A DNA stretch of 60,378 nucleotides from an uncultured Planctomycetia bacterium (GCA_964527555.1 CAZGOG010000007.1:1-60378); one strand, 5' to 3'. Shown: positions 1 through 52,435, counted from the stretch's first letter. The notes: generated by a model from the letters alone, not told the origin. Made by a program: numbers and translations.

Positions 1-210
1 CGGAAGAACAAACTGCTCTCTGTCGGTGCGTGGGATGAGATGCAGGTTGCCGAAGACTATGAACTGGGGCTTGTATTATGGTTTAATGGTCTTAACGTAC
101 CTAATTTTTATACTCTTACTTCAGAGGACCCGGCATCCACTACGTTCCTTACTTTTGAGGTAAGGACGCTTCAGACCTCAAGGTGGAACAAGGGTTATAT
201 AATAGGACTG
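1..210 (+). other. GT2 (cellulose-synthase-like) catalytic C-terminal motifs in G1
   Basis: VGAWDEMQVAEDYELG matches the GxWDxxxxxED motif; QTSRW (172-186) is the QxxRW motif; hydrophobic TM helices follow. Confidence 0.85.
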
Positions 211-3200
211 CTCCAGATTGTTGGTAAAGGGTATATGTGGCGCCTTATCCGTAAAAAAGGAATGATAGGTGCTATTAATTTCCTCGTTCCGACTTTAGCA
301 AGTGCGATATTCCCGTTCTTATTCAGGATATCCAAACTGTTTGCGCTATTCTGGTGGACTTTCTATATACCTGTACAGGCTATAGGCAGCTTGGTGCTTA
401 ACAGCCAGCTTGGCCCGGTTGGCGTATGGTTACAGAATAACCTCGCCATAGGCACTATAGCTACTGATATGCATGAGTTTGTCTCGACGGTAGTACCTAT
501 TGCGCTTAACTTTAACCCCGAGGGATGGGGCTGGGCGGTGGGACCGGTAATTTCACTATCGATGATACTTATACATGCATTTTTCACGGTTGCCTCGATT
601 TTCCAGGGCCCTGATGACGAGTTAGGGCTTGAGACTGCAGACGGTATGTTTGAAGAATTTATTGATAAACTGGAAAATCCGGAACTTGATCGTATCACTG
701 ATATAAGGCAGTGGGCGATGAAAGAATTTGGGTATACGCCTGCAGAAGAAGCAGCGCTTACCGACGAGGAGCGACTTAACATTGTTGTTTCTAATATAGG
801 ACAGTTGTCATTGGTGGAAGGATTCAAAATAACGCAGGAGAAAGTAGATGTCCTTACACCGGGAGAAGAGGACTACCTGAAGTGTGCCGCATGGGGAGCA
901 GCGAATTTGGGATTAAACCCGAGAGAAGCAGTAAGGCGCGTGGATGATATCGGAGGCGCTATGCAATCCGCGATAGAAGAGTTAAAGGAGTCACGCAGGC
1001 ATGTTCAAGCTGGACGCATTAAGAATATAACATTTGTAGGTGGCAGGATCGTTAAGCTTAGCCTGGTTTCGCCTGCTTTGTGGATAGTGTTTGCAGGCCT
1101 TTTCTTGGGTTCTGTTGTGGCGGTGGCCTCAGCATGGAGTTTATTCTCTTTTGGAATGATTACCGCCGCTTTTACAATCGGGTTTACAGTTGTAGCTTTA
1201 GGCTTAGGGCTTGGATATATACATCTTGCTCCGGCAGGATCGATGCAGCGTTCCATAAGGGCAATGCGATTCCGTCTTGCTATGATCAACATGTTCATAC
1301 CGTTCTATCATATGCTGTATCTTTATGGCAACCGTGTCGCCTGGGGCGAAATAGGCCCGAGGATAGGATACTGGCATTTAACACCGCGTGCCGCCGATAT
1401 TCCCGCGGAAATTGCGAAAAAATACCTGGCCAAAGAACCGCAAGCGCCAAAGTTTGATCTCTTTAAAGGCACGACAGCTATAGATAAAGAACTTGAAACT
1501 CCGAGAAAGAGACTGCAGGCGGTACTTAATTATACGTTTCTGGGGGCGATATTTTATGCGATAGCTTATGGACTGAGAGCCGACCTAAGCGATTTTCGTT
1601 TGGGTACTATGATAACAGAATGCTTAAATATAAGCTTTGTCGAACCTGAAGCAGTTCAGATTCTCGGCATGGCCCCTTCAGCATTTTTCCTATGGGGAGT
1701 TGCAATAGGGTTGTTTATTTTAGTGACGGGAGGATTGATCAAGTTTATCAAGAAAGTATGGAGTTTAAGCCGTCCCGAACCGCTTATCCCCTGGGATACA
1801 AATAGACTAGGAAGAGGCTGGGCGGCAGTTTCGCCGACACGGCCGCTGGTGCCGCCTAGAGAGGCTCAGATCAACGGAGAGGCGCCCCACGCATTCCGTA
1901 CGATATCCGTATGGTCATTATTCGGTCTTGGAGGGGGATATGACTGGCTTTTCTACGGCCTGGTTTTCGGTCTTGGAATAATCCCCGCTTACATGATTGC
2001 AAACTGGCAGGGGCTTTCCTATATAGGTACAGGGCTCGGTGTAATGCTTGCTATTATTTCCTTGATATTTGCAGTTACGGGCCGTGACAGGGCAAACGCT
2101 GTTAGAGAAGCTATCCGCCAAGCCCATCCCGAGTTTAACAAACTGGAAGTCTTAACGCATAATATTGGAACCGACGAGGAAGCACTTAAAAAACTCCAAG
2201 AGATCTCTCCTGAAATTTATAAAGACATAAAGGAACACGAATTCTACGAGACGCCTTTTATCGGCCATGTGCTGGGTTTGTGGCCGTTTGTACGGAGAGC
2301 CTTTGTTCTTACCTCGGTGATATCAGCTATAGAAAGTATTTTTATTGCAAAACCACTGCGTCAGACTCCGGTTATTGAAAGAGAAGCCGGTGAGGAAACG
2401 CCTGAAGAGATATTTCGAGTGATAAACGTTACGGTACGCGGTGAAAAGCAGAAGATAGACCAGCCAGTTAAAGCCGCAGTTTTAAGGGTTAAGCCTGCCA
2501 GTACAAATATAACATTAAGCAGAGAGCCGGATTTGAATATCTCATCAGGAGTAAAGCGCGACGGTAGATACGCGTATCGCGTAATCGCCGGAAAACGGGT
2601 TTATGATAACGAACCTCAAGATGCTATGCGCAGGGATATGCCGACTGTTGGCGACCATATCCGCCGGTTTAAAAAGGATCATCCGGATGAAGAGATAATC
2701 GCCATGACGGGGTTTGGGAACCTCTTCATGAATAAATACGTCGTGGCCTGGAAGAACGGCACTTTGTATCATTTAGACGGGGAGGATACCGGCTCCCGCG
2801 AATATTACTGTATAGTACAGCATAAGGAAGATGCCCGCATGTCGCTTGAGAAAGTCAGATTCGCAAGTAACGCTGACGGCACTTATGACATTATAAGAGT
2901 GGATGATAACAGGAACATCTCCGATGATATAGTCTGGGCCGCCAGCGGGCAGCCGGCTATATATAAAGGTGAGATAAAAGGATTCAGCGATACATGGCAG
3001 TACTATTACGACATAAGGCAGCTTGTGAGCCTGCCGTTTATTGCCGGCACGCACCTGGGGATCTCACAGTTCTTTGAGGACAATGAGGCCCAGGATATAA
3101 AGAAAGAGATATTCGAAAAAGTCGCCGCGAAAAAGGTAGTTGAGATCGATATACAGGATCTGGATCTGGCGGAGATAAAAAAGGCCCTTGCGGAGAAAGC

Positions 3201-6195: not shown

Positions 6196-6296
6196 TTGAT
6201 AGGTGTGGCGAGCAACCGAAAGGAGGGGATAGTAAGAAAAAAACTAGTATGACCTAACCGAAATAAGAGGTGCAAAAACCTTCCTGCATCTCGGAG

Positions 6297-6350
6297 ATGT
6301 CCTCACCGCCTGAGTCGTAACAAGCTTAGGGGTGGGGACATTCTTTTTCT
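6297..6350 (+). terminator. Intrinsic terminator after G1
   Basis: ATGTCCTCACC-G-CCTGAG / CTTAGG-GGTGGGGACAT stem (two G-U pairs) followed by TCTTTTTCT. Confidence 0.8.
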
Positions 6351-6466
6351 GGCAAGCAGCCAGTTTTATATTAATTTACATAACATATTATAAATATTAG
6401 ACTTGAGAATCCAAGGAAAAATTATTTTACAATATGTTAAGATTCAAAAAAGCTTGCAAAGAATTA

Positions 6467-6494
6467 TTGACTAGAATTAAGCATGTGTTATAAT
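6467..6494 (+). promoter_or_regulatory. sigma70-type promoter with extended -10 for G2
   Basis: TTGACT (6467-6472), 16 nt spacer, TGn, TATAAT (6489-6494). Confidence 0.7.
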
Positions 6495-6554
6495 AATGTA
6501 AACTTACAAGTTAAGAAATAAAAAAGTTTAAGCTAGGTTTTTGTTTATTCAATC

Positions 6555-9500
6555 ATGGCGGGGGAATATATAAAACAGGGAATTTGTATGGATATACAAA
6601 ATAATAGAAAAAGTCACTTCCATGAAAAAACTTTTCATTATAAGGAAGTTTGCCCATTCTTCTCAAGCACAAAAGAAGATAATTCCAACTATGGCATAGC
6701 GGACTGGAAAAAGCGCAATGCCTTTTTTATTAAATGCGTAAGTATTTTGTTATCAATCATTTTCTTCCACCAGCAGGCCGGCTGGACCCAGGAAGGCAAA
6801 CCTGTCTGGACAGAGATCAAGAGCTATGACGCCTATCACGAAAAACTCGACAACACCAGTATAGACATTCCTTACGATGTCGCAAATACCCAGGAAGCTC
6901 TCGCTAACGGCGGAGATGAAGTCATAATCAATATCCAGGACGCTCATGCATCATTGGCCGCCCAGTACTCAATTGCCAAACTCTTAGATTCACTTGTCGC
7001 GAATTATGACCTGGAATTTATTGCCATAGAAGGCGGAAGCGGATATATCGACACTTCGCTATTAAAGACGTTCCCGGATAAAAAGGTGAGGGATAAAGCA
7101 GCCAATATTCTTATGGAAGAAGGCCATATGAGCGCAGGTGAGTTTTTTGCTGTGACGCATGACGAAAGCGAGATCGATCTCTATGGAGTCGAAGACGACG
7201 CGCTTTATAATGCCAACGTCGAAAGTTTCAGGGCAGTCGCGGGGGACAGGATAGAGCGCGTTGATAATATCAATAAACTGCTTAAGGAGCTTGAGAATAT
7301 AGAGAGGAAAGTTTCTTCGAACGAGCTTTATACTTTCAGTGAAAACTGTGCCCGGCATAGAGATGGCGAGTTTTCCTTCTCAGACCACTGGAAATATATC
7401 GAAAATCTTGCCGAGAACAAAAAAATCAAGTTTAATCCCGAACCGGAACTGGCAAAACTGGTCGAGGCTATAAGACTCGAAAAAACAATAGATTTCTCCA
7501 AAGCCAATACCGAACGAAAGCGATTAATAGACAGCTTGAGCGATATCATCGGGAAAGCGGAACTTGAAGCGCTTGTCAAGAAGTCGCTTGATTTCAAAGA
7601 AAACAGGATATCGCAGGCAACGTTCCACACTTATATCATAGACCTAGCGGCAAAACACAATATTCCCGCCGACGGATACACTAACCTTATAGCCTTTGCC
7701 GAATACGTGGATATTTATGAATCTGTTGACATCGTAAAATTGTACCGCCAGATGGCGAATCTTGAAAAGACGGTTAAGGAAAAGCTTTACCGCACGGGCG
7801 AAGAAAGAGAGTTTTATGCTCTTAAAAGGATGCTGGAGCTCGCAAAAAAACTTTACAGCTTAGAACTTACGAACGATGAATGCGCCGATATAGAATCAGG
7901 CTACAAGGATTTTACCCCCGCCAGATATGCTTCTTTTATCAAGGATGCCTCTTCAAAGTACAGCCTTGCCATTTCCGGAGATTACGATTTGAGTGAAGTA
8001 TTTAATAGTATTGATGAAGCTCTCAACTTTTACCGGGATGCCGAAGCCAGGAATAGCGCCATTCTTGCCAACACCGTCAAAAGGATGCGTTCCAGCGGCA
8101 AGCGCGTTGCGGCGCTGATTACGGGCGGATATCATACGCAGGGCCTTACGGAACTTATGCGCCAGAAGAAGCTTTCGTACCTGGTAGTCATACCGAAGTT
8201 TGAAGACAAGAGAGAAAGGCCGTATATAGCCATCCTTACCAACAGGAAAAAACCCTACGAAAAGGTGCTTGAGACCGGAAAATATCAGCTCGCCATAGAG
8301 GCAATATTCCGGGATAAGATGGATAGGGAAAGTCAAAAAGCGCTTTTTAGTCTTACTTATGACCTTACCATGCGGGATGCAAGTATCAAGCCTGGCGAAC
8401 GCGAAAGAAAAAGACGGATCTGGATAGAAGCATATGAAGCTCGCTATGACATGCTTGTCGAGCTTAAGGGCAAGAGGGACATGGCGAAAAAAATGACGCC
8501 GAATGAGTTTAGAGCGTTTCTTGCGGGAAAAGCGGCTGAAGAAGACTCCCGGAAAGAAGGGGAGAAAACAGCCGCAGAAAAAACAGAAGAGGAGAAGATA
8601 ACGGAGATAGTAGACTTTGTCATCGCGAATGATCCGGACCTGTATAAGTTAATATCGAGGTTGCTGCCAACTGGGAACGAGACTACCGTAAAAATCAGAG
8701 ACGAAATAAGCGTGCGTTTAAGGAGTAAAGGACTGGAACCCACGGAAGACAATATTCTTAAAGTGATCCGCAGGCTTGAGATCCATTATATAGAGAATAC
8801 GACCACGAGCGAACCTGTTATTGAAGTTAAATTCGGCAGGGAAGAACCGGTTCAGTTATCTATTAGAATGTCCGAACTGGCAGGTGAATTCGCTGATTAT
8901 GTTGCTTTTGTAAAAGGAGGGGGCGAGCTTCAGGATTTAGCGTTTACCAGCGAAGACAGAAAGTTTATTGAAGAGAAACTTACGCTTCTTAAAACAGATC
9001 TTCAGGCGCTGGCCGTTTTTGAGGCGGATGATGAGACAAGACAGCTGATACTCCGGCATACGGATCTGGCAATAGGTGCTTTATACAGCGGACTTAACAC
9101 CTATCCTCCGGATATCAGGGAGGAAGTAGAGGATATAACTTTTACTTACGGGAGCAGCCGGCTTATAAAAGATATCGTTATTTCCTGTGACACGTTCGAA
9201 AAAGCCGAAGATCTTGCCATGAAGATCGGTCTTTATGACGGAAAAACTAAAAGAGAATATTCCCATACTGAGATAATGGCGCTTAAGGGGAGTTTTCAGC
9301 TCGACGAAGAGACGGTAGATGAAGATGACGCAAGGCGCCAGTTTGTTGTAGTAAAAGACTGGCAGGTGTCACGAAGAGATTTTCTGAAAGGCGCGGGACT
9401 TGGGATACTGGCGGGTTCGCTATTGGTATCAGACGAAAATACTGCTCTTGCGGAAAAGCCAAACGGTAATTTGCGTATGGGCCAGCCGGAAGTTTTAGCA

Positions 9501-12500
9501 GGGCGGGCAGGTACGTTCAAATATGTGAAACGACCGCTTTATGATAACGGACATGAGCTGGGCGTAGCTATAATTAGGTATTCAGAAAAAGATCCTAAGG
9601 GAGAACTCATTCTTTATAACTCTTATGAAAAGATGCTTAAGGCGCGGGGAGTAGATATGCGTTATCTTCCGCCCGAGCCGCGGACAAAGGTAAATCCCGG
9701 GGTGCTGAAAGAACCTGTCCAGAGGATACTAAGCCTCTTAGAAAGCGAATACCCCACGGAAATGAAGGGAGATGAAGAAGAAAAAGGCATTAAAGGGCTG
9801 AACAAAGTTATAAAAGCCGAGAGGTGGTGCCAGATCTGGGCGGATATATGCAGCGTCCACAGGATGAACGAAGAGCGGGCCAAAGAGCACTTAGAAGGTA
9901 TGTACGGATTTCTGAAGATGGTCATCAAAGAGACCAAAAAGCGCAATGAAAGGCGCCTGAGCGGCTTGAACAAGCGGCATCCCAGGGAAAGAAAAGTAAA
10001 GATGGAGTTCCCGTCTTTGATGGCGGCTATTATGTACGATGTTTTGCCGTTCAGTGAGACGGGTGAAATGAATAACAGATTTCTGGGGCTTCCGGAGATG
10101 CTGATGCTCGCCGATTACCTGCAGTTGGAATTGGAAAAAGATATATGCAAAAATTATATGTACACTATTGCAGGTGTAGAGGAAGGTAAGGTCGAGATAA
10201 GCGAAGAACGAGTGTGGCAGGGCAGAATTGAAAAAACTAAATTCTTTGACATCATCGAAGACCTTACCGACAAAAGATATTACTGGCATATGAGAGTGGC
10301 CATGAAAACAATAAGCGGAGATATATATAAGGAAGGGTACCAGCATAATGGCGACTGGGAAGATTATATAGGACGCCTTGCCGTGTTGGAAGCGTCCAGG
10401 AAGAGTTTCTTCGGGTATAAGGATTCAGAGTTTTATAAAAGGTGGAGGGCAAAAGCGGGGGAGACTTTGGGTGACTATAATAGGAGGATACTCAGGGATA
10501 ACATTGACGAATTAGATATTGTCTACCGGTTTATGATAACTCAGGATCTTTCCCCCGATGAGATGGAGAAGTTAGCGCCGTTTTTGCATGGGCTTGAACC
10601 GGAGCTGGACAATATATTCGGGTCTTATGAAGACGAAAAAGCTCCGGAGCTCATCAGACCATGGCATGGGTCGTATCTCGCGGTGATACTGGACAACTTA
10701 AAGCGGCTTCCCTATAAACCGGACTACGGGCCAATAGTAGAAAGCGAGGTAAGGGAAGTCCGCGCGCTGCTTCATGTCGGCAGGCTCCTAAATGCGGCAA
10801 AAGGTCTGGAAGTGATCGAATTACTTAAGAAAAAGCTGGGTATCGACGAGATACGCAAGAATCTTAACAAAAAGATGGAATTTCTTTTATGGATGGTCAA
10901 GGAACTGCAGCTTTCACAGGATCAGATGCCTGATATATATACCGCCGCGCATTATGTGAAAATCCTCCAGACAATACCGTCACTTATTAAGGAAGGCCCG
11001 GATAAAGGCAAGTATATAAGCACAAAGTATGATGAAGAGGCCTATTATAAAAGAGGCGAGAAGATTGATAAGGAGATTATAAAATATTACGTCGTATATT
11101 ATCCTCCCGAAGGCAGTGAACCCGTCGGCAAGAAAAAGTACAAGACGTTTACGCCGATTGTGGATCAGGATGGCACGAGAGAAGTCCATGTGACGTACGG
11201 CGAAGATACTTATGCCAGAGAGATATGGCGGGTGAATGACGATGCCGCGGAAAGCTTTGACGTAAAAACCGCTGCGATAAACGGTAAGCTGGTAAATAAG
11301 GTCATATACAAAAACGGGCTTCGCATTATCGAGACCGTCGATGATGTGGACACTCCAAAAGGGGGTGTGACAGTCGATGCAAGGTGGTTATACGATGTTT
11401 TCTCAAAGGTATTCCCAAGGCTTGCTACCGAAAAAGTAAAGAAATTCTATGAAAACATAATCGTACCTTTTATAGAGCTGGTATATCCTTTAGCGGCGCT
11501 TTCACTGCTTGCCAAGGTGCAGGGAGTTCCCCTTATGAGCTTTGATTTAGGTTCTTCCATGGCAGTTGCCGCACTTATGGCGGCAGGCGCCGTTTTTGTG
11601 ACTAGTCATATCATAGGCTTATCTACTATCATCAATAAGCTTACCGGTAGAGCCCCGCCGAAGATCGAAAGAGCCTCTCTTATTATCTCCACTTTGATAT
11701 CTTTAGCGCGTGTTTTTATAATCCTTCCAGTTGCGGTAGTCGTGACGAACCTTTGTTTTGGCCGGCCGGATTTAACTATTTTTGTTTATTTGGCTTTAGA
11801 CTGGCTGTTTCATGCAAAGATAAGTTCTTCTGCACCCGGAATAATGAAATGGATAGAAAGACGAACCCGGAAGGACGTGATAAAAGGTGAAGGTAAGGGC
11901 CAGTTGCGAAGGGATTTCATAAAAGAGGTATTAAGCTTTTTGACCGGTGGCGCTTTGATTCCGGCAGGAGATAAAACTGTAGCCGGCGAGTCTCAAGCGG
12001 AAGGCGAGCTTAAAGTTGCGGAAAAACTGCCGGAACCGCCTGAAGAGGTTTTAGAAGGTCTTAAGATGCCTATGATCGATCCCAAAAAAACAGCAGCGTA
12101 CTATATACCGCCGGACAGTAAAACCGGTCGCGTTCTTTTCAGTTCGGATAAGCATAAAATATACGTGCATTTTTATGATGATCTTAAGGATCCTAATTTT
12201 GTGTATATATCGAGCACGGCTAAAAAAGATATGGTTGTAATTGACGGTGTTTACCACCATATTTGGTCCGTTTACAAAGTGAAGGAGAAAAGTACGGAAG
12301 TCGGAGGCATGGTTCATATAGATAAGATGAAGATAATCGGCAAAGCCATAAAGCTGAAATTCGACGGGCACCAGATTATAGACGAAGCTGATCAGCCGAA
12401 AGAAGGCGGAAAGGAGCCTGAAGAAATACCAGAAAAAGCGCCGGAAGTGTCAGGCGAGATTACATTTTCAAGTAAGGGCGAAACGGCTCTTTTAAAAGGA

Positions 12501-15500
12501 TTAGGCGCCGGAGAGACACTTGGAGAGCCTCAACTTCTTGCGGAAAACACAGTTTTACAGCAAGGATGCATTAAATATCCTATATACAGGGAGGGAGCAG
12601 AGGTCGGAGCGGCCATAGTTGATGTTAGCCCCGTGATGGGCGAGCTTCACGAAAGCGTTATCAGCAAAGTTTATTTCAACGAAACAGATAAGCTTATAGA
12701 TTTACGCAGGACTCCTCCCGAGCCCCGTACAAAGATTGATCCGGAAGCCCTGGAAGGTCCGGTAAAAGATATCCTCGCCCTTTTAGAAAGAGAATACCCC
12801 CAAGAGATGACCGGACAAAGGAAAGACGGGACAAGTGTAGAAGGAGCCAAAGCATTAAACGGCTTTGTAGGCATCCATAGGACGGAGAAGCGTCCCGGCT
12901 GGTGCGAGATCTGGGCGAATATATGCAGCGTTCACAGGATGAGGGAAGAAGTAGCTGTAGAACATTTAAAAGGAGTCCGCGTCTTTTTAGAGATGATCAT
13001 CGGGGAACTTAAAAAACGTAATACAAGAAGGGAAGAAGAAGGCAAGAAAAAGATGGAACTTCCGCCCGTGTTGGGTCAAGGCATGTATGGGCTCTTGCCG
13101 CTTGATGAAACAGGGGAGATCAATAACAGATTCCCGGGCCTGCCGGAGATCCTGATGCTTGCTGACTTTTTACAGGTACAGTTGATTAAACATAGATTTG
13201 AGAACACAGACATCCCTGACTCCTTACCCCATCGTATTGTGAGCCCTGAATCATTATTTGATTTGTGGATCAATAAAAAGTGCGAAGGTATTGACACAGG
13301 GATCTTTAGTATTGTTGAAGATCTCTCAGATGGGAAAGATATCATCAGAGCAAGAGCACAAATGAAGATTAAAGGCGCTTATATCTATGACAATATGTAT
13401 CAGCATTATGCGGGGGCTGATAAGATAGGACGGCTGGCTGTTTTTGACGCCGCCATGGAGTGTTTCCCTGGGTATAAAAGATGGAAAGCGCGACCAGGAG
13501 AGTCGCTCTATGATTATTATTACAGGATATGGATGAGAAACAAAGATGACTTGAATATCTTTTATAGATTTATAGTTAACCAGGATATGTCACCTGAGGA
13601 GTTAAAAAGACTTACACCGTTCCTGCGCGACCTGGATCCGCAGCTTGAAGAAATTTTTGGCAGTTACGAAGAGATGCCGCTGGAAGACCTGGGTAAAGAA
13701 TGGCACGGGGCGACTCTTGCTGATTTTTTAGAACAGCATAAAGGGGAAAGGAAGAAGCTTGACGAAAGTATGATGGTCAAAGTACAGGCGGAGGATATCA
13801 GCGGCTTACTCCATACGGATAGACTTCTCAACGCCGCAAGAGGGCTTGGAATAGCAGATGAGGTAAAAAAAGGAGTATCTCCCGGGAAAATACAAAAAGA
13901 ACTGGACAAGAAAATAGCATTTTTAAAAGAGATAGTAAGAGATTTCCAGAAAGCACAAGGGCAGACACCGAGTATATTCACAGCGTCCCATTATGTGAAA
14001 AACCTCCAGACTGTACCTGCGCTTATCCAGGAAGGGGAGTATAAAGACGATAAATACATAAGCATAAAATATAACGAAAGAGACTATTATGATAAAGACA
14101 TAAAAACGGTACAGTATTATGTCTTGTATAACGATGAACTGGGAAAAGAAAGCTTCAAGACATTTACGCCGATGGTGGACCAGGACGGCAGAAGAGAAAT
14201 CCATGTAACGTATGGCGGAGATAGTTATGCCAGAGAGATATGGCGGGTGGATAAGGATGCCGCGGAAAGCTTTGACGTAAAAACGGGCAGAATAAACGGT
14301 AGGCTGATAGAAAGGCTCGAGAATATAAATGGAGTTCGTATTATTGAGCCCGTCAAGGATACGGAATATGTAAAAGAAGGCGTTACAGTTCATACAAGGT
14401 GGCAAAGGGTAGTTGCGACTATTCTTTTAGGGACATTTGGCGTGACTTTGCCCTACGAGGCCGGGGCAGCGGCGATGAACGCGGCAATATTGGCCGCAGA
14501 GGTGCAGACGCAAAGACAGCTGCAGCTTGAGATCGCCGAAGAACTTCCAAAACCCTCACCGGAGCTTCTAAAGGACTTTGAAGATGCTATAGCCAACCCG
14601 AAATCACCGGCCTCTTACTATATCCCGCCCGGCAGCGAGACAGGCCGCGTTCTCTTTAGTGCATTGGACAGGATATATGCGCATTTCTACGATGATCTTA
14701 AGGACCCGAAGTTTATTTATGAAACAAGCATGGCCGAAGATGACCTGCTCGAGATCAACGGTAAACTCCACCATGTATGGTCTGTATATGAAGTTGTGCG
14801 CAAAAGCACTGATTCCGAAGGTAAAGTCCAGATAGACGAAACCAAACTGATAGGCGAGGTTATCAATCTTAAGTTTGACAAGGACACGCATCAGGCTGCC
14901 AGCAAGGGAGATAGATTCGCAAATATAAACACCAGGGAAGTCACTTATAAAACGCCGGACGGCAAAGAGCACAGTGACTATTACAGGTACGTAAAGTACG
15001 TAGGGGATGCCCCCGAAGGATTGAAGGAGTATATTTTTAAACGCAAAAAACTCGATGACGGTAAATTTCATCTCGTGGCGGCGCTTGACCCGAAGAAAGC
15101 GGACGTCACCACCGATGGCGAACTAATCATAAAAGGCGACGAGAAAGACGCCATAGTCAAAGAGTATAAATATGACAAAGATTATACATGGCAGTATGAC
15201 TGCAATTTAAAAACGAAGAACATTTTCGCATCTCCTTACAACAGGGTCGCCACTAAAGCTACCAGCAATGCGATAGTCAAGTTAAAGAGTCTCAGCGGGT
15301 ATGAAGACGCTGATGGATTCGTCCTTCCCTATGACAGAGGCGCGTTTCTTAAAAATGTCCTTGAGGAATACGGGTATTATCCGGACGGCAGCCTCATGTG
15401 GAAGAAAGACCATGTTAATAAACAGTATACACTTTACACAGAATATACCATGTTAGGCAGACTTTGCCGGCTTTCCGGCACCATATATGATTATACCCCG

Positions 15501-24500: not shown

Positions 24501-27500
24501 AGGATCTCGCATGAAGCGGCCCAAAGGGTGAAAGAGATAAACCAGATGAGAGCTGCCAAGCCAAAAGTCTCAAGAAGGGGATACTCACATGGCGGCAGAA
24601 AACCGTGGGGTAGAACAAGTCTCGATATTATGTTACCGGAGGTACTTATCACCGCGGTAATCGCAATAGTCGTTGCGATTTTAACGCTTGGTGTGGAGAC
24701 AAACCTGGTCATTTACACAGTAGCAGCTATTTTAGTGTTTTCCGCCGCTTTTATGGGGGCTTTATCGCTTGGAGCGGGTATCAAGTATTTAAGGAACAAA
24801 CATCCGGAGGAATTGACGCCGCTTGAAGAGGGCATAAGAAGAAGCATTAAATATTACGCACCTGATGTAGAACTTCAGGAAGAAGAAGCTGAAGAAGAGC
24901 AGCATTTCCAGGCTCTTATAGATCCAGCTAAAGCGCCCCAGTATTATTCCGAGGAGATAGTCTTTAATGCATCCGGCTATACGGGTAATAGTGTCGATGA
25001 TATTAAGGAATACTTGAGGGAAGAAAATGGAACTGCTGTTTCCGTTGAAGGACCTAAGATAGGAGAGATTACCGTTGTCAAGAATTTCGAGGCAGACGCA
25101 CGTATAGCTGCTCAACTTGTAACGTACGGTATAAATATTAAACAACTTATTCAAAAAGACCTGGCCAAAGCGATAAGGATCCGGGGGCCGAACCTATTCC
25201 AGGGTCTGGAAGATAGAGAAATGTCACTTGTCCTTCTCGATAAATCCCCGTCCATATTCGAAGACCATAAGAAGAATAATTTCATCGGAATAAATAGAGT
25301 TCTCTTTGATAAAATCGCCAAAAACACCTCAAAAGAGGTTCTTGAAATTTTACTTATTACAGGTATACTTCACGAGCTAAGGCATGAAGCAGGCGAGGGG
25401 GATGAGGAGAAAATTACAAAAGAAGACGTTAGTCTTATTATATCCTTGGCAGCTCAGAAGGGCGTAACTATAAGATCAATTATTGATGTAATTAACCTGG
25501 TTTCAGGAGAGAGTCTACTTGTTGAAGAGTTAGAGAAGACTCCGTCTATAAATGTCCTAGCCGTTAAGATGATAACGAATGCAGCCAACCGTGCGATTAA
25601 GAATATAGAAGAGAAAGGCTGGATTACAACAACCCATAAAGATGGAATACTTAACCTTCTAAGACAGATAGCTAGAGGCGATGTCCCGTGTGGAACGGTA
25701 TATGATACTTCTCTTTCTTATACCGAACGAATAATGATAGATAGCCTTGGCAGGACTCGGGTAGAAATCAATACAGCACTTTTCTTTAACCACTCAGATA
25801 TGGAACACGAGGCTGATATTGTGCACGAAGTTGTACATTTCTTGCCACATCAAGTTGCCATGATACCTCTAGTAAACCAGCTTCTTCCGCAAGTAATTGG
25901 AATCCAGAATAGTCTTTCCGAGAGAGCTTTTAGCGAAAGAATTAAGGCTGACATAGATTTGCGTGAAATGAATAAACGGTTGTGGGCAATTAAAGTGCAG
26001 GGTGAAGCCGAGGCTCACTCAATTGGATATGAATACTGTAAAAATGCTTTACACCAAGAGAGTATAAAGTTTAAAGATTATTTACTAGAGAAAGCGGATT
26101 ATTTAGAGCAGGTGGCCGTTCGGGGTGATGTGGCAGCAAGGGCTAACCGTTGGCTGGTCCAGCATTTAACGGAAGAAGGCGCATTGGATTCCCGCTTCAA
26201 GCTATGGGTGATGAAAATTGCGCTTCATGAAAATACTATGAACATAATACGACAAATAGCCGAAGCTGAAGGTGTTGACACCTCAGACGAAACTCAGTAT
26301 GAACAGTGGTTACTTGCGTGGGTGAACAATCCAGAGTACGGTGGGATAGAGCCGGAAGGCGTGAAAACAGAAGCGCCAGAAACAGCTGTTAGCAAAAGAA
26401 TTAAGAAAGTTGCCGGTATTGTTATCCAACATATGGAAAAAGACGGGTGGATCGTTTCAAGCCACAAGGAAGAACTAATTGCACTCTTAAAAGAGATTAC
26501 AGAAGAGGGCAAATTCGAACTATTTAATGATCCCGCTCGTGGGATGGTTATGTGGATCGACGAGAAAAGAGACAATATATTGCAGGTCAATACGGCTCTT
26601 ATAGGCATGTATTCAGATCAAGAGATGGAATCAATACTAATACACGAGATGTTTCATCGACTGCCTCATCAGATTAAACGGCGCCGGAGAATTAACGAAA
26701 TCCTCGAGGAGCTAAAACGAAAGAAACCGGCAGCGGATGTTTTCTTCTGGAGAAATGAGGAGGGAAATGAAGTGCGTGAATTACTTAAGAGACTCATCGC
26801 CCTAAGAATACGAAATGAGGTTGAAGCCTGGTCTATTCAACATGAATATAGAAAACATATCGCTGAAAGCCTTGGATTTACCGATGTGAGGGATTACTAC
26901 CGAAAATGTGCGAGGGAAACTACCAGTCCGGGTATAAGAGAAGACTCTAACATTTTTATTAGAACTACACAAGATGACGGGACTTTAGGAGGAGAATTCA
27001 AGTGGATGCTCTTATCAATAATATTGCTACCATTAGGAGCCTCAGTAGCGAGGGGGCTCAGGGAGATGCTTAAAAACACCGCTACAGCTGAAGGTATTCT
27101 TTCTTCTGATGAAAATCAGTTTAAGGCGTGGCTGTTATCATGGATAGATGATGTAAAATACTGTGAAGTAGAACCAGAGGCCACACCAGTGAAGCCTTTG
27201 CCGGCTGAGACGGTAAAACCAACCCAGGAACCGACAGAAAGCGACGTGCGCAAGAGAATGACCCGGATCGCCAGCGAGGTCATCCGGCATATCGAGAAAG
27301 ACGGGTGGATCACTACGGAGTATGCCGGGGATATCGTTGGGGTTCTGCGCGATATCATAGAGAAAGGCGATTTTGAGATATATAACGAGCCGAATGACCC
27401 TTGGGGGCTTAAGGTCTCTCCGGCGAGCCATGGAGCCGGACACGTATTAAAGGCCAATAGGCCTATAATAGCTATGGATTCGGATGAGGAACTTGAAACG

Positions 27501-30092: not shown

Positions 30093-30122
30093 TAAAAAAG
30101 GTTCGGCATAAGATCCCACCAA

Positions 30123-30180
30123 AATCGATTGCCATTTATAAGTCTTTGTAAATAAATGACTTGTAAATGGCGGTACGATT
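30123..30180. repeat. Long imperfect inverted repeat after the G2 stop (terminator-like or REP-like)
   Basis: GCCATTTATAAGTC (30131-30144) / GACTTGTAAATGGC (30158-30171), extended by AATCG/CGATT; no adjacent U-tract. Confidence 0.6.
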
Positions 30181-30268
30181 CCCATCAATTCTTTTTAACT
30201 ATATTTTCAGATAATTAAAAGGAAAAAATACAAACTTTTGTTAAATAAAAAAAAGTAAGATTTGTTGT

Positions 30269-30297
30269 TTGACCATCGATTTTAATTGTGTTATAGT
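30269..30297 (+). promoter_or_regulatory. sigma70-type promoter with extended -10 for G3
   Basis: TTGACC (30269-30274), 17 nt spacer, TGn, TATAGT (30292-30297). Confidence 0.65.
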
Positions 30298-30373
30298 GTT
30301 AATAATTACTTTAGTTAATCATTAAAAAAGCTAGATATAAGTTATTTTTATGTAGTATCAAGATTGTTTTGAT

Positions 30374-33300
30374 ATGGGAAAAATGGATATGTATAGAAAA
30401 CATATAATATATAAAATTATCTCTGTCGTACTTATCCTCGTGTTCATCCACGAACAGATCGGATGGACCCAGGGAGGCAGGCCCGTCTGGGCTGAGGCCA
30501 GAGAATATGTCTCCACATACCGCGATAAACTGGACACTTCGAATATAGACATACCTTACGATATAGCTGAAAAGCAGGATGTTCTTATTAATGGCACCGG
30601 CGAAATAATAATAAACATCCAGGATGCGCACGCCTCGCTTTCGGCGCAGTACTCCATAGCAAATCTCCTGGACTCACTTGCCACTAATTACGATCTTTCG
30701 CTCATCGCGGTGGAAGGCGCTTCAGGGTATGTTGATACGTCCATACTCAAGACATTTCCCGACAAGGAAAAAAGAGATAAAACCGCCAAGGAGCTTATGG
30801 CCGAAGGACGCATGAGCGCGGGTGAGTTCTTTGCGGTAACGCATGACGAGACGGAAGTGAGTCTTTACGGCGTGGAAGAAAGCGAGCTTTACCGGGCGAA
30901 TCTTGACAGTTTCAGAAGCGTTGCCGCTAACAGGGCCGAAAGGATCGCCAATGTAAATGCGCTCTTAAAAGAACTTGATTCCTTAGGGGAGAAGGTCTTT
31001 TCTAAGGACTTCCGTGATCTTAACGAGAAGTGCCTGCTTCACCGGGAAGGGAAACTTACTTTCACAGGTTACTGGGAGTATATCAAAGACTTCGCCGGGA
31101 AAAAGAAAATCGCAAAACCGGAAGGAAAAGAGCTTGCCAAGCTTCTTGAAGCTGTCGGACTTGAAAAATCCATAAATTTCAGCCGCGCAAATGACGAAAG
31201 ACGCATCCTTATCGATGAGCTTAGCGAAAAGATGGATAAAAGCGGTCTTGAGGAGCTTGTCAAGCGGTCAATCGCTTTCAAGGACCAAAAGATCTCACAG
31301 GGCGAGTTTTACTCGTATCTTCTACGCCTGCCGGAAAAGTATGGCATAGGCCCCGAAAAATACACTAATCTCATAGCCTTTGCCAAATACATAGCCCTTT
31401 ATGAGTCGATAGAGATCTTCAGGCTCTATCATGAGATAGAAGCGTTCGAGGATGGTATTCGCCAGGAGCTTTACCGTACAAGCGATGAGATAGAGCTCTA
31501 CCGGATCATCAAGATGGTGCGCCTTGTTAAGCAGCTGTACAGCATGGAGCTTACCAACGGCGAGTACGAGTATATAAAAACGAATCATAACGGGATCAAT
31601 GCTTCCGGCGTTAGTGCTTTTTTAAGAGATAAATGCAATAAGTATAAAATCGCGATAGAAGGGAGCTATGATCTTTCAAGCATATTTGGCGGCATAGATG
31701 AAGCGCTTTCCTTCTACGAGAAAGCCGAGATGAGAAATGCGGCTATGCTTACCAATACCGTCAGAAGAATGCGCGCTGAAGGCAAGCGCGTCGCGGCACT
31801 GATCACGGGAGGATACCATACCAAGGGTCTTGCTTCCCTTATGCGTGAAAAAGGGCTTTCCTATCTTGTAGTTACCCCAAAATTCGAGGACGGTAAGGAA
31901 AGACCTTACATCGCTATCCTTACCAACAAGAAAAAGGCCTATGAAAAGGTGCTTGAAACCGGCAAATACGAGTTGGCTGCGGAACTGTTTTTCCAGGACG
32001 TGCAAGATACCTCGGATGGGGCAAAGAGGATGGATTTTATTCTGAGGCGCCTTTTCCCGGGTGAAGAGAGAATACCAGATGAATCCGCCCGTATATGGAT
32101 AGAAGCGTATAAGAACACGTATCAAAGGCATGTTGATTCTCTTCCGGAAGAAGACATGGCAAAAAAGATGACACCGGAAGAGTTTGAAAAAGAAATAATG
32201 AAAAGAGCGGAAGGTGAGGTTTCCGTGAAGCAAGCGCCTGAAGAAGAGGCGCCAGCCGTATCGACCGGCGAAAAAGAAACAGAAAAAAAGACGCCCGCAG
32301 AAAAAAGGCCCATGGGAATAAAAGGGCTCATGATAGCTTACTGGGTTTCACTCGGCATAATGGGTTTAAGCATAATAGACGTCATTTGCTGGGTGGAAGG
32401 CGCGGCACCCCTTACAGTTTATTGCGCGTTCAGCATAATGAGCGCGGTCTATGTAGCAGCGCAGGTAATCATTGCGCTAGGCATAGACAAGGCTTTTAGA
32501 AAAATAGGCATCAAAATATATGCAGACGAAATAGCCTGGACGGAGAAAAAGAAGATCGTTGTCACTCCCGCGTTTTATGTTCTTTCGAAACCTATCCAAA
32601 AACTCGTTCTTATCCATGAAAAACTTCACACCTCCGGACACGGCGAAACAGCCGCTTATGCTTTGGCGCCGTTTCTTCTGGTCTTATATATCGCCTTTCC
32701 TTCTCTTTCATGGTTCAAAGAAATGGAACCGTCAAAAATCATCTTAAGAGAAGAAGATAAAGAAGAGGAGTGGCAAATAAGAAAACTTAACCCCAGACTT
32801 GACGCCGAGATCCTCAAGAAAACGCCGCCTTTTAAAAAGCGTTATATCACTATAAGCGATCTTCACGGGATCTACCCGGCCGAGCTCAGGCGTATGCTGA
32901 GGAGCGTGGGATTTATAAGCAGCAAGGATGAGATAATCGCCCGTAACACGGTGGTGGTTATCGGGGGGGATACTATCGACAGGGGACCGGTATCACTGGA
33001 GCTCTATAAGTATGTGAGATATCTGCAGGAAGAAGCGCAAAAAACCGGCTGTGAAGTCATACGTCTTCTGGGCAATCATGAGCAGATGTTATATGACGGT
33101 ATGCGGGGCAATGACGAGTCTTTACTTTTATGGGTATACAATTTGTATCGAAGCGGCGACGAATGGGGGATAGACGCTTTTGATTATTTTTACACCCAGA
33201 AGGCATATTATAGCGCAGACACCGGCCAGGGTAAGGCGGACAAAGAAACCAGCGAGAAATTAGCCGTAAGCGGCTTAAGAGAGAAAATCAGAATGAATAC

Positions 33301-36300
33301 CAAGTGGGGAGAAGTCTCCCGTCTTCTTGCGGAAGATATAGAAGAGGGAAAGTTCAAGGCCGCGCACGAATGCAATAATGTACTTTTTGTCCACGGAGGA
33401 ACTACGAATGCGCTTGCTAATTATCTTACTATCGTAAAAAAAGGATATAGCGCTAAGCTGGCCGCGGATGCGCTTAATGAAGAATTCCGCCAGCACGTAG
33501 AAAAAGAGGGCAACTTAAGCCGTCTATCGCGCTTACGCCAGGCTCTCTGGGATAGATTCACGGGTAAACGGCTTCCGTCTCATGACGATCTTAACCCCGC
33601 GGAAAGGAACATAGTAAACGGAAGCGGTATCGACTATCTTATGGTCGTCGGGCATGCGTCCGCCAAGCAGAATGGACGGATCCGCGTTTCACCATACGGT
33701 AACGTTATCAATGTTGATACCGGGCATATCGATGCATGGGGCGCAGATCACGGCTTTCTTGTGATCGAGGGGAATGATTTCTGGGCAGTTGAACTGAAAC
33801 AGCCCCAGGAAGAGACCACCCGGGAGTTCATCACAAGGACTACTGAAAAGCGTCCCGGGATCAAAGAAAAGCTTGAAAAGGTAAGAACAGCCATAAATGA
33901 GAAGAAGTACGGGGAAGCTGGTAGGGAGATAATGAAATTAGTTAGGGAGCTAGAGTTTATCTTAACGTACAGTAATTCAATAAGGGTAAACGAGCTGAAT
34001 GAATTAAGAGAAAAGAGCATGACAATTTCGGAAGAATACTCCGAGCACCTGGAGATATCCCTTATAGAGGATTTTGTTGCGGAGATAAGGGAAGCAACTT
34101 ACAAGTTTATCTCTTCGCATGAGAAGGCGTTTAGCCTGGAGGAGATGAGAGAAATCGAATCTTTTCTCTCGAAAAGGTTTGACGAGCTCAAAGAAAACTG
34201 GGCTGAAGATGCTGAGGCAAGAGAAATACTCCGGGAAATAATCAGCGAAACGATTAGTTTTGTCATAAAACACGATTCACTTTACCCCAACGAACGAAAT
34301 GAGTTCGAGGCCCAACTAAAAGAACTGTTTTCAGGATACAAGGGCAATGATAGCCAGGGCGCTTTAGCGGTAAAAGCTCTAAAGAGCCTCATGGCGAGAA
34401 TAAACCGGGAAGAGGAAAGGATTTTTGACCCTCTCATTTTTCTCAGGGAACAGGCGGAGACCATAAAACGTATCGCTGAAAAGCTTGCGGATCCTAGACT
34501 TGCCATCGATCCCCGCCAGGTGCGACTATTCATGAAAGAAGAGATGTTTCCCGGAGAACGGGCAGAAGATCTTAACGGAAAAGTACGCGAAAGAATTGCG
34601 GGACTCATCATGCCGGAAATCATCCCGACTCAAAAAAAGGACATGATCGTCGGGGTAAGATACCGGGCCTTTCTCGAAGAGATCAAGAAAGAATACGACA
34701 AGATACTCGCCGGAAGAACCGCAAAGTATGAAAAACTCAGGAAAGCCTTCGGCAGCGTGCGCAATGCGCTTAAAAAAACGCGAAAATTCATAAGGCGCAA
34801 TAGGTTCCTTATAGCGATCGGTATTACATTGGCCGCTTCCATTATGCAGGCTCTGGGTATAAACGCTTTGGGTGAAGGTGTTTTTGCAAGCGGCGTGATG
34901 ATGGCCGCGGGCTCTGGCGAAGAAGACAATGGCGAAAAAGAAGCGGATGATGCCAAAAAGCCGAAAGAGAAACCGGAGCTTCCAGTACATGAAGCGGGGC
35001 ACATAGCGCCTTTTTCCCTGGCCGATAAGGCAGAAGAGGCTGTTCCTGTCCCTCACGGATGGATAGCCAAAGCATGGGATGTCATCGGCAGAGCTTTGCC
35101 CGGCGGTAAAACCGAGACGCATAAAGATATCGTCGCCAGGGTAATAAGCAACACCGCCCATCAGGATACCGAAGATTTTGCCATTGATGTTTTAGAGGAA
35201 GGGGAGGAATCGGAACTACTAATATCTACTCGAAAGAGACAGGATATCGACCGGAGAGTAGAAGAGATGATAGAAGAAGTGTGCAGAGCTGCGGACATAA
35301 AAGACATGAATGCGCTCCAGCTCCAGCACGTTTATGAAATCCCGGTGACCGATTATAATGACCGCAGGATTACGGTAAAAGTGTACTGCTATAAGCCGAA
35401 AAATAACTATGTCATAGAAAAAGCTACAGATCGGATCAGGCAAGCTGCCGGAAATTACAGGGGTAAAACAAGTATTCCCAGCTATACGACTTCGGGCCTG
35501 TTTGCCCGGCTCCGTATTAACGGCGGGAACGCTGTTGTCCCTCAGAAGGATTCGCTGAAAAATCTACCCGAGGGTATGACCGGGAGCGACTCATTTCTCC
35601 CCCGGATAGCGTATGCGATAGCAAAAATAGAAAAAAACATCGAAAAAATGGGTGAAGATACGGATCTTGAAACGCCGGGGATGACGGATCTTTATTCAAT
35701 ATTGCAAGAGTTCAGTAAAACTGAAGCACAAGCTGGAGTGGGCGCATATAAACGCCTGGCAGGTATTATCAGAGAAAAACTTGTCGAAGTTCAGAGGAAC
35801 ATAAAAAACGCCGAGGAAGAAATAATCCGGATAAAGAAGACCAGTCAGGAAGGGGTAGATCCCAGGGAAATTGAAAGAAAAATAACTCTTCAGACTAAGA
35901 TCAAAGACGGTGCGGTTATGACGGAGGACAAGCTGCGGCAGCTCTGGTATTACATAAATAATCCTAGAGGCGACTATATGGCTGAAAGCCTCAGAATAGA
36001 GAAGGCCGGTGAGACTCGCGCTCCCTCCAGGACGCCTTTAGTTCTTATTGTTGATAACCTTACGCCTTCACAGCTTGATTACATAGTCAACAACCACTAT
36101 GTTGAGGCATTTGTCACAAAAAAAGCCACAATTACTTCACACTGGGTCATAGCGGCTAAAAATAAGAATATCCCGGTAGCTATCTTGGACATGCCGCCCA
36201 TTTTAGAACAGTACAATAAAGAACCCGCGGACCAGATCACGGTAGAGAAGGATTTCATTCATAAAAGAATGGTGCTGATAAGGTCTGATGCCAATCACAG

Positions 36301-39300
36301 CGCTGAGGTGGTATTTGCGCCTAGCATGGTAGATTGCAGGAGTTTCCGGGATACACTGCTGCAAGAAGAGGCGTTTTGGGAATTTGTACAAGCAGAGATG
36401 GAAGAGATCGTTTCCGGCGGAAATGACCAGCCGTGGCGCGACATAAAGCTGGAAGGGACAGAAGCGGAAATCTCGCTTCTGGTAAATGCCGATACCCCGG
36501 AAGACATCAGAAAAGCCAGAGAAGAGAACCATGCCGGCGGAGTGGGGCTTGTAAGGACGGAATACTTGTTCAGCAGTGACGGGGCAATCGATGAAAACGG
36601 AGAAAGGCCCCTCGTTGATTATCTGGAGAGGTTTTTCGGTGTCAAGAAAAACCCCGAAAAACCCGAAAAAACCCTGAAAGAACTGCGCGAGTCGTCTTTT
36701 TTGTACAAAAAAACACGGGAAGCCCTTAAGGAAAAGATGGTAAAAGACTTTGTCGCGTTAAGCGAAGCCGCGGCAGGGGCGCCCGTTACCATCAGAACGA
36801 TAGATTTTCAGCTTGATGATCCAGGCAAAGAGACTTTAATACACAAATATCTTAAAACTGCTGATTATGCCCGGAAACTCTTCGCCATGTGCGAAGAGGA
36901 AGGTCTGACCCAAAAGGTGGAATCAGGCGTTGATTTCTACAAAAATCCACTGGGAAGAGAAATCCTGCAACTGCAGCTCGAAGCAGCTATGGAAGCGTAT
37001 CTTATAAGCAAAGAGAAGAACATCAAGATAATGTTCCCCATGATAAGCACAATAGCAGGAGTCGATAGGCTTATATCCAACCCGGATAGTGTATTGATGC
37101 ATGCCAAGATGCGGGCGCTTAAGGATACTAAACAGGAAGGTGCTGATGAAACCAGTTTTGACGCTATCCCTATAGGGATAATGGTAGAGACGGATATGGC
37201 CGTAAGGAACATCAGCGAGCTTGTAGCGAGAAAAGAGATAAGTTTTTATTCTATCGGGACAAACGATATATCGCGCTACCTCATGGCCTACGTCAGGATT
37301 ATCGAACAGTATATCGAGCGATATATCGAAAAACTTAAGAGTAAATCTCACAACATCGATAAAAGCAAGATCAGCGATAGAGTAAGGACGGAACTATCCT
37401 TAAACTACGGTGAGTCTGTAAACTATGAAGACTTCTTGATACACCTCATGAATGTCGCCAGATATATTAAAAAATACAAAAGCGAACACGATGATAAAGA
37501 CCCGGAGATAGGCGAGATAGTAAAAGCGTTCAAGGGAAAGCAATATGAATCATTTCCGAAACTCGATGAGGTAGTGGTGGAGCCCCTGAACAGGGACGAC
37601 CCGGATAATGCGAAGTATACGACGACCCTCCAGCAGGCCGTTTTGATCGCCATAACGATTGTTTTAGGCACGATCGCGACATATAACGAAAATAAAGCTC
37701 CCGACGAGAGGAAAGAGCTTTCCATCTGCGGTGAAATGGGAAGCTGGTATAACTTCCAGGTGTTTCTTGTGAAGAAGTTAATGAAGCTCGATATAGTGCC
37801 CGGTCAGGTTCCCTTAAGTCTCAGCATGGCACGCGGCAGGATACCGGCTGTTAACGTTTTCATACGCGGGATTAAAGAGCATCATTTGGAGACTGTCGAC
37901 ACTTTCCTGGAACCGGGAAAAGACATTTTCGGCGCTATACCGGTGGACCAGATGGCGGATGGAGTGGTAGAAAGGGTGTTTGAAGATATTTTTGCGCAAG
38001 AGAACGGCGATAGAATAAGCGTTCCGAAGATGTACGAGAAGTTAAAGCAAGAGCTCGCCACTAAAGGAATAAATGAGCTTAAAACCCCGGATGAGAGAAG
38101 AAAGCGGACGCTTTACACGCTGGAACTATTAACCAGGCTAGGCGGTCCGGAAGCGGTAGGGGAAACACTCCCGACCGATATAAAAGGGGATTTTCCGGTT
38201 TCCAGTAAACTGGATGAAGAAGCGATCGCAAAAAGAGGCCGGGAAATATTGACTGAGCTTGCCAAGAAAAAAGCGCAAAAAACAGAGGATAGCGCCCTTA
38301 AAGCGGCAGAGACTTTCGTCATAAGAAGCAATCAGGGACTGCACCCGAGACCCGCGTGTGCAATCATCGACAAAGCGGAAGAATATGGGGTCCTCCTCAA
38401 GTATATAGCTTATAAGCCGGAAGGGGAGGCGGCTGAGGAAGCCGGAGACATACTTCTTAGGACTTCTGATGATAAATATCCGGACCGATTGTACGGGACA
38501 CGTGCGCTGCTTGAAAAGAGTCTTTTAGAACTGGAAGCTACCGGTGAAAGAGCCCGGGAATTTTTGGATGCGTTAACCAGCGACGACATAGGCGTATATG
38601 ATACAGACCCGCTGACGGATACTGTCATGAAATTCATGGAGGTTTCCGAGGAGAAGCTTTCACCCGAAAGGTATAAAGAAGAGCCGGGTCAGCCGGGAGA
38701 GAAACTGCCCATCAGCACGAGAGGACTCATCCTCTCGGGTCTTTTTTCACTTTTTTGCACTTTAATAGTAACAGTTCTTGCCTGTCTTGTCGCAGAGATA
38801 ATAAAACAGCATTATCTCTGGATTTTTATCATTGCCTCCGGTTTCATATTCCATTTTGCCTATAAATTCGGCAAGGACTGGCAGCTGGCGGATGTAATAA
38901 TAAGGGCTTATGAAACAGCAAAAATAGCGCCTGAAGAGGTTTACCCGGCATGGACTGAGGATGAGACGATACATGTTTTCGTTAATGTTTATGATGAGAT
39001 CAGCAAAGAGTTCCAGGTGAAAATCCACACGCACGAAAAAGCGCATGTATTTTTAAACAGGCTTTTGAAGAAAGTAGGATTGCGTCAAGGCAAAGTCCTT
39101 ACCGCGATAAATCACTTTGCCGCGTATCAGTTTCCATGGCTTGGGCGTTTTGCTAAAGACGTAAAGACCCAGCCGGAATTTTATAGAAGAAAACCGGTTG
39201 CGCCATCCGAAACGAAGACAAACTGGGTTATCGAAGTCATCACCGTTTGTGGGGTTCTTTTGATCTTCGGGGCGGCTTTTATTTACATGGGTTATAAGGC

Positions 39301-52405: not shown

Positions 52406-52435
52406 TTGACAAATTTAGTAAAAAATTGATATACT
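52406..52435 (+). promoter_or_regulatory. sigma70-type promoter with extended -10 for G4
   Basis: TTGACA (52406-52411), 18 nt spacer, TGn, TATACT (52430-52435). Confidence 0.7.

Follow-up and report, generated by a model that had tools for sequence, protein, structure and literature searches.

The stretch of DNA analysed here (hereafter the window; 60,378 nucleotides, nt, from an uncultured Planctomycetia bacterium, GCA_964527555.1 CAZGOG010000007.1:1-60378) is filled by four tandem giant open reading frames (ORFs), all on the plus strand and here assigned to Candidatus Omnitrophota. The third of these, G3 (30374..52207; 7277 amino acids, aa), bears both copies of a small module in which a transmembrane (TM) hairpin leads into a compact core with an HExxH motif. 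By sequence comparison, these two copies and a third from a partial giant protein of an Omnitrophota metagenome-assembled genome (MAG) are a real, homologous small family, and the chances are slightly better than even that the module is a membrane-anchored minimal zincin-type metallopeptidase-like domain of the M48/M56/minigluzincin type. It would represent a rare, lineage-specific variant of the membrane-tethered mini-zincin and is a candidate, and not more than a candidate, for the cutting of giant proteins.

The original prediction had placed HExxH motifs behind paired TM helices at nt 32615 and 39032 of G3, each accompanied by AW and AAY, and both sites are borne out (179 and 216 bits, respectively, by hidden Markov model, HMM). 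In both, two hydrophobic helices precede the HExxH by ~45-50 residues, AWTE lies before it and AAY after it, and the core that follows the TM pair extends over ~60-95 residues in the order AWTE strand, I.V strand, HEKxH helix and (E/H)xxxY. All coordinates given below refer to features on the plus strand. Copy 1 (32309..32737, G3 aa 646-788), comprising the TM hairpin, the zincin-like core and a hydrophobic tail, is positioned between the N-terminal block that G3 has in common with its neighbor G2 and a Metallophos domain. Its hairpin, delimited by a hydrophobicity scan (32327..32485; aa 652-674 and 679-704, joined by the loop EGAA), precedes the strand motif AWTE (32534..32545, aa 721-724), comparable to NA[FW]A in M48 peptidases; HEKLH (32615..32629, aa 748-752), a candidate for zinc binding and catalysis; and ETAAY (32645..32659, aa 758-762), in which the Tyr is invariant and Glu758 is a candidate third ligand. 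Glu758 falls at the HExxHxxGxxE spacing (reading HEKLHTSGHGE), without a segment of ~20 residues between the HExxH and the ligand position. The hydrophobic segment of copy 1, AAYALAPFLLVLYIAFPSLSWF (32651..32722), includes 12 inserted residues that the other copies lack, which makes it uncertain if the segment spans the membrane; the Omnitrophota relative has no equivalent TM segment.

Copy 2 (38699..39166, aa 2776-2931) consists of a TM hairpin and a zincin-like core. The hairpin found by hydrophobicity scan (38726..38878; aa 2785-2809 and 2813-2835) corresponds to helices 7-34 and 36-74 of the structure model described below, AWTE (38948..38959, aa 2859-2862) is the predicted first strand of a beta hairpin, and HEKAH (39032..39046, aa 2887-2891) is in the middle of a long helix predicted at residues 46-68 of the core model. 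The copy is completed by HFAAY and PWLGRF (39113..39151; PWLGRF at aa 2921-2926), and on the following helix His2914 is a candidate third ligand. Across the giant proteins of the window there are nine HExxH motifs in 19,775 aa (0.55 expected) and four occurrences of AW.E (1.7 expected).

Taken alone, the two G3 copies have marginal similarity to each other (BLASTP of the pair, E=0.001; phmmer independent E, 0.1-0.3). Across all windows of the four giants, each copy has the other as its best match, and their local alignment score of 55 exceeds that of every one of 2000 shuffles (26 +/- 4.7; maximum, 51). A profile built from the two copies and searched with HMMER against 1.84 billion representative proteins returned only G3, at both stretches, and the Omnitrophota MAG protein P0002 (MDD5438819.1; partial, 6413 aa; E=4e-5). 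The copy in P0002 (...FAATTDDITIYVNAPVFDNL...LDHEQTHVLLNR...GEFFAYAAPWLGRFA) is 29% identical to G3 copy 2 (BLASTP E=1.8e-10). By collinearity (aa 166-2083 of P0002 against aa 624-2764 of G3), it occupies the position of copy 1. As it resembles copy 2 and sits at the position of copy 1, the three copies constitute one family.

Features common to the three copies occur in a single order: K.P....GL., TM1, TM2, A(W/A)T(E/D), I.V, HE(K/Q)xH, (E/H)xxxY, and (F/A)P(W/S)L..F. The HExxH is present in all three (HEKLH, HEKAH, and HEQTH), and the residue four before the invariant Tyr is Glu in copy 1, His in copy 2, and Glu in P0002. Within the core alignment, 14 of the 81 ungapped columns are invariant, a frequency at which three named columns would all be invariant by chance with a probability of ~0.005; the invariant columns include the H, E, and H of the HExxH, the A.T of AWTE, I.V, AY, and P.L..F. 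Compared to copy 1, both copy 2 and the P0002 copy possess an extra segment of ~20 residues ahead of the third-ligand position.

Of the five sites originally listed, the two described above are thus real, with one external relative, and the other three fell away. The supposed degenerate copies in G1 (nt ~1335-1440 and 2236) lack an HExxH and were recovered neither by phmmer nor by an unfiltered HMM of the three sequences. A further HEAGH noted after a TM segment at 34988 is not a module, and was rejected as a member, as it lies in an acidic/lysine-rich low-complexity insertion that is absent from the aligned ortholog P0002.

The proposal that the module recurs between cargo domains was likewise not upheld, with only one other protein in 1.84 billion representatives carrying it. 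When the unfiltered three-sequence HMM was applied to the window and the related loci L001-L004, translated in all six frames, no copy was found in G1, G2, G4, or L001-L004. When either G3 copy or the three-sequence alignment served as the query, word-index searches had no matches and also did not return G3 itself, such that the index evidently lacks these giants. A pattern scan of GTDB species genomes (alignment A3) found nothing, a weak negative given that confirmation relied on tblastn with copy 1, a query too divergent to validate even the P0002 contig, and a scan of JGI metagenome contigs (alignment A4) also found nothing. A DNA motif scan for AYxxPWLGRF in 185,579 species genomes had 36 matches, about the chance number, of which one alone, on the P0002 contig (L032), is a genuine copy. 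Judged by these searches, the module is extremely rare and lineage-specific, and is not a general junction device of giant proteins.

The assignment as zincin-like is based on a selecase top match, a weak match to Peptidase_M56, and hhalign scores in excess of those for shuffles with a fixed HExxH. The top three matches of the module profile in the PDB were entries of selecase MJ1213 (E 0.06-0.13), aligned in register over the strand, the helix, and the HExxH. With the TM helices included these entries were the only three matches, while the core alone added six further matches at E<=10 that amount to noise. In Pfam, copy 1 weakly matched Peptidase_M56 (BlaR1; E=0.089) over the HExxH region of the profile (positions 177-227), and the P0002 copy weakly matched PhageMetallopep (E=0.17). 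For hhalign, the module core was compared to M48 cores (the HExxH regions of Escherichia coli HtpX, LoiP, YcaL, and BepA, from NC_000913.3) and to a selecase-like set of two genes from archaeal MAGs. In order to remove the trivial contribution of the HExxH, all other columns were shuffled 150 times with the HExxH fixed. The observed score against the M48 cores (23.0; P=0.0025, Prob 12%) was above all of the shuffles (12.8 +/- 2.2; maximum, 20.9), as was the score against the selecase-like sequences (29.1; P=1.3e-4, Prob 54%; shuffles 12.8 +/- 2.4; maximum, 24.4).

AlphaFold2 models of copy 2 were built with the three-sequence alignment. Modeled with its hairpin (predicted local distance difference test, pLDDT, 73.7), the copy has two long helices, the second of which continues into the core, and the core modeled alone reached a pLDDT of 86.7 and a predicted template modeling score (pTM) of 0.80. 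In the core model, a helix (residues 2-16) is followed by strands at 27-30 (AWTE) and 33-37 (TIHVF) and by a helix at 46-68 with HEKAH at 55-59, thereby placing the HExxH on an alpha helix. The C-terminal part is predicted to consist of a helix at 75-87 (with His82 and Tyr86), a helix at 89-94 (PWLGRF), and a tail strand at 99-103. The E/H/E position, a candidate third ligand, is predicted to lie on the helix after the HExxH helix, and the modeled order of the core elements (backing helix, small sheet, HExxH helix, and ligand helix) is that of minimal zincins.

Several known groups are comparable to the module. The minigluzincins (selecase MJ1213, PDB 4QHF-4QHJ; proabylysin; projannalysin) are catalytic units of ~100 residues in which a backing helix, a small sheet, and an HExxH helix are followed by a third ligand (His) on the next element, an arrangement that the predicted core of the module would match, and selecase has the short HExxH-to-ligand spacing of copy 1 (HELLHLKYGKYH in selecase). 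They differ in that they are free-standing, soluble proteins of archaea and bacteria, whereas the module is joined to a TM hairpin within a 7277-aa protein, and in the ~20 additional residues found before the candidate third ligand in copy 2 and in P0002. The third ligand is Glu in gluzincins and His in minigluzincins (PMC6925264). The integral-membrane zincins of M48B and M56 (HtpX; BlaR1/MecR1) share with the module an arrangement of TM helices ahead of a membrane-apposed gluzincin core, and BlaR1 cleaves itself. The M48 pattern NA[FW]A...v.v..gL......E...V..HE..H (HtpX, LoiP, YcaL, and BepA) parallels AWTE..I.V......S......l.HEK.H in the module, and the A(W/A)T motif of the module resembles NAFA and the NAWA seen in YcaL. 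MecR1 possesses an amphipathic re-entrant helix inserted between the HExxH and the Glu ligand (PMC6925264), to which the LNR...L insert of copy 2 can be likened. Unlike these proteins, the module lacks a sensor domain and is internal and duplicated in a giant multi-enzyme protein, and the distance from TM2 to the HExxH is ~45 residues, compared to ~85 in HtpX. Small HExxH domains of the SprT/Wss1/Spartan type have been grouped with the minigluzincins in the literature (PMC4559962), and hhalign of the module against E. coli YggI/SprT gave P=7e-4; these are, unlike the module, soluble DNA-protein-crosslink proteases, and a weak Pfam match to SprT-like in the window belongs to a set of tandem repeats in G2 (see below), not to the TM-anchored module.

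Based on the sequence and the models, the module may be the M48/M56/minigluzincin layout (HtpX, BlaR1/MecR1, selecase) cut down to ~60-95 residues. The helical hairpin of two TM segments would anchor the unit, with the second helix continuing as the 'backing' helix, followed by a short beta hairpin (AWTE and I.V) and the helix bearing HE(K/Q)xH. The next helix would contribute the Glu or His four before the invariant Tyr as the likely third zinc ligand, and an amphipathic FP(W/S)L..F element would close the module. Because Lys and Arg are enriched in the flanks of the hairpin relative to its loop (9/0 in copy 1; 5/1 and 3/1 in the other copies), the positive-inside rule suggests that the core lies on the cytoplasmic face, alongside domains of cytoplasmic enzyme type. 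At the membrane surface, presumably on that face, the domain would bind zinc and function as a peptidase. Possible substrates include the giant polypeptide itself, cut beside the module; a role like that of HtpX, in the quality control of other membrane proteins, is just as possible.

A number of observations weigh against this interpretation. All of the matches to zincin families fall short of the thresholds, whether curated or conventional (Pfam M56, 12.4 bits; cut-off, 31), and single-sequence PDB searches with the module did not find a zincin. Comparison of both models to the PDB and BFVD with Foldseek had no significant match (best E 0.5-3, template modeling score <0.4) and did not recover the structures of selecase, proabylysin, or the Ste24 type, and, as such, the zincin fold was not recovered by structure comparison. 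Two beta strands (AWTE and TIHVF) are predicted N-terminal to the active-site helix, with the third strand in the C-terminal tail, whereas zincins usually have three or more strands N-terminal to that helix. With three sequences known in all, the conservation statistics are thin and the alignment underlying the structure models is shallow. The topology of the module is ambiguous due to an N-terminal signal-anchor-like helix in G3 and the extra hydrophobic segment of copy 1, and cleavage by the module is pure inference. Because neither Foldseek nor the single-sequence PDB searches yielded a zincin, the module is called zincin-like here and is not filed under M48 or M56; a significant family-profile match (M48/M56/minigluzincin) was not reached, and the M48/M56-type zincin initially proposed persists as a likeness, seen in selecase, weakly in M56, and in hhalign, without formal membership.

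It is unlikely, if not negligibly so, that the module is instead an anchor or spacer that retains a zincin-derived fold without protease activity (a pseudo-enzyme or a structural metal site) and holds the neighboring cytoplasmic enzyme domains at the membrane. The very small core with only two predicted strands would be in keeping with such a role, as would the linker between the HExxH and the E/H, which varies by ~18-22 residues between copies, and the Lys or Gln after the Glu, where M48 commonly has small or hydrophobic residues. Further, the giant proteins contain many other TM hairpins without an HExxH, so an anchoring role alone could be sufficient. What an inactive anchor would not readily explain is that the H, E, and H are invariant at an overall identity of 23-31%, including the catalytic Glu, which is needless for a purely structural zinc site.

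A core with a new fold unrelated to zincins, in which the HExxH is convergent or otherwise used and the weak matches reflect a generic strand-helix pattern, appears quite unlikely given that hhalign exceeded all 150 shuffles for two independent zincin profiles, that the alignment register sets AWT and I.V on the NA[FW]A...v.v strand region of M48, and that the E/H is conserved on the helix after the HExxH, though it would account for a confident model without Foldseek matches, for sequence matches that are all sub-threshold, and for single-sequence PDB searches without a zincin. A further alternative, in which short motifs recur by chance behind hydrophobic segments without any true module, could draw on the marginal similarity of the G3 copies alone and does apply to the G1 'copies' and the HEAGH, but is very improbable for the G3 copies, for which it is refuted by the third copy in P0002 (at both the BLASTP and the 1.84e9-protein search E values), the reciprocal best windows scoring above all 2000 shuffles, and at least six motifs in common in the same order.

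Copy 1 begins at aa 646, directly after the end (aa 611-644) of the block that G3 has in common with G2 and L001-L004, and is followed in G3 by Metallophos, as is the copy in P0002. Copy 2 begins at aa 2776, directly after the collinearity with P0002 stops (aa 2764). The proposed location at domain boundaries is therefore supported for the G3 copies, which lie at the ends of homology blocks, and all of the known copies are at block borders; with a sample of three, and as TM segments separate soluble domains anyway, this is suggestive only.

Self-processing of the giant protein by cleavage in cis is, on balance, unlikely. In this improbable reading, the module would act in cis as a zinc protease tethered to the membrane and would cut the giant Omnitrophota polypeptide right beside itself. 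If true, G3 would be split into an N-terminal block, a Metallophos/PEP-utilizer block, and a C-terminal block, each a separate membrane-associated protein, and the giant gene would in effect encode a bacterial 'polyprotein' that carries its own processing sites. The tail strand after PWLGRF (core residues 99-103), which is confidently modeled, could lie in the substrate cleft. The internal cysteine protease domain of the MARTX toxins is an autoprocessing protease of giant multi-domain proteins and, if self-processing were to occur, would offer an analogy of function only, in that a protease within a very long chain frees neighboring domains; its catalytic class and fold are different from those of the module.

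It is a stated open question if the giant proteins of the Omnitrophota (7,000 to >100,000 aa) persist as a single chain or as cut pieces, and C39 and S8 peptidase domains are the sole processing enzymes proposed for them (10.1101/2023.11.21.568195). A zinc protease module of this type is unmentioned in that study and in a second account of Omnitrophota long proteins (10.64898/2026.06.07.730766). As a small, defined, and clonable candidate processing unit, with two copies exactly at block borders, the module makes the question of cutting testable for one protein family, while its rarity precludes it from being a general solution for giant proteins. Among M48/M56-like zincins that are tethered to the membrane it would be the smallest, and it would exemplify such a domain duplicated inside one polypeptide.

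The other giant ORFs of the window are G1 (40-6195, in a frame open from base 1; at least 2051 aa), G2 (6555..30092; 7845 aa), and G4 (from 52572 past the window end, 52572-60378; at least 2602 aa). G2 and G3 have blocks in common at the N-terminus (~640 aa, 52% identity) and at the C-terminus (~380 aa, 33% identity) and differ in their middles, and G1 and G4 have in common another block, of ~400 aa (24% identity). This modular paralogy suggests that blocks are shuffled between neighboring giant genes. All of the relatives of the G3 N-terminal block are from Candidatus Omnitrophota MAGs. The enzyme-like domains of G3 identified with Pfam include Metallophos (aa 825-943), the mobile and PEP-binding domains of PEP-utilizers (aa 1889-2312, nt ~36000-37300), a class II fructose-bisphosphate aldolase (nt ~48900-49350), and HEAT repeats, such that domains resembling central metabolism, a PEP-utilizing enzyme and a class II fructose-bisphosphate aldolase, are fused within one protein. 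This set fits the 'multi-enzyme metabolic cluster' class described among Omnitrophota long proteins (10.64898/2026.06.07.730766).

G3 equals the database protein P0001 apart from a start codon placed 5 residues earlier, and near-identical proteins are present in several independent assemblies. For nt 38000-40000, 100% of the sampled words occurred in at least 7 DNA metagenome runs (sediment and seawater), with no RNA runs among those listed. The near-identical copies from independent assemblies and the metagenome runs indicate that the G3 ORF is not an assembly artefact; the near-identical strain variants P0003 and P0004 hold no information on selection. Scans for Rfam families and tRNAs found nothing. 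Between G3 and G4 lies a gap of 364 bp, in which no terminator-like site was detected and a sigma-70-type promoter-like site near consensus is present at 52406-52435 on the plus strand (TTGACA, an 18-nt spacer, and TATACT with an extended -10 TG), which suggests that G4 may own a separate promoter.

Beyond the TM-anchored module, G2 has four more HExxH motifs that are within the range covered by the original prediction and were unlisted there. Three of these (G2 aa 6424, 6697, and 6986) belong to a soluble, zincin-like tandem-repeat family that is distinct from the module. The family consists of four tandem repeats of ~285 aa each, delimited by repeat motifs (25581-28964, plus strand; G2 aa 6343-7470), in the order (E/K)(K/D/E)GWI..., HExxHxLPHQ, NE.EA..IQHEY, and W.LSW. 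The HExxH is intact in three repeats (nt 25824, 26643, and 27510) and degenerate in the fourth (REAYRVLPRQ, nt 28329). The Pfam SprT-like matches to the repeats are weak (E 1e-4 to 6e-4, below cut-off), and hhalign to the E. coli M48 cores gave a Prob of 54%. P0002 has a second HExxH (GIHELGHV) at aa ~4860-4900 that is within a hydrophobic helix and is reminiscent of intramembrane metalloproteases; Pfam returned nothing meaningful for this TM-embedded HELGH or for a TM cluster at G3 aa 5050-5200. A third kind of small HExxH unit is present at G2 aa 6273 (25371-25385; ...FIGINRVLF...LHELRHE) and recurs in the related Omnitrophota giant of L001 at protein aa ~950 (...LEINIRVLE...NHEVRHA).

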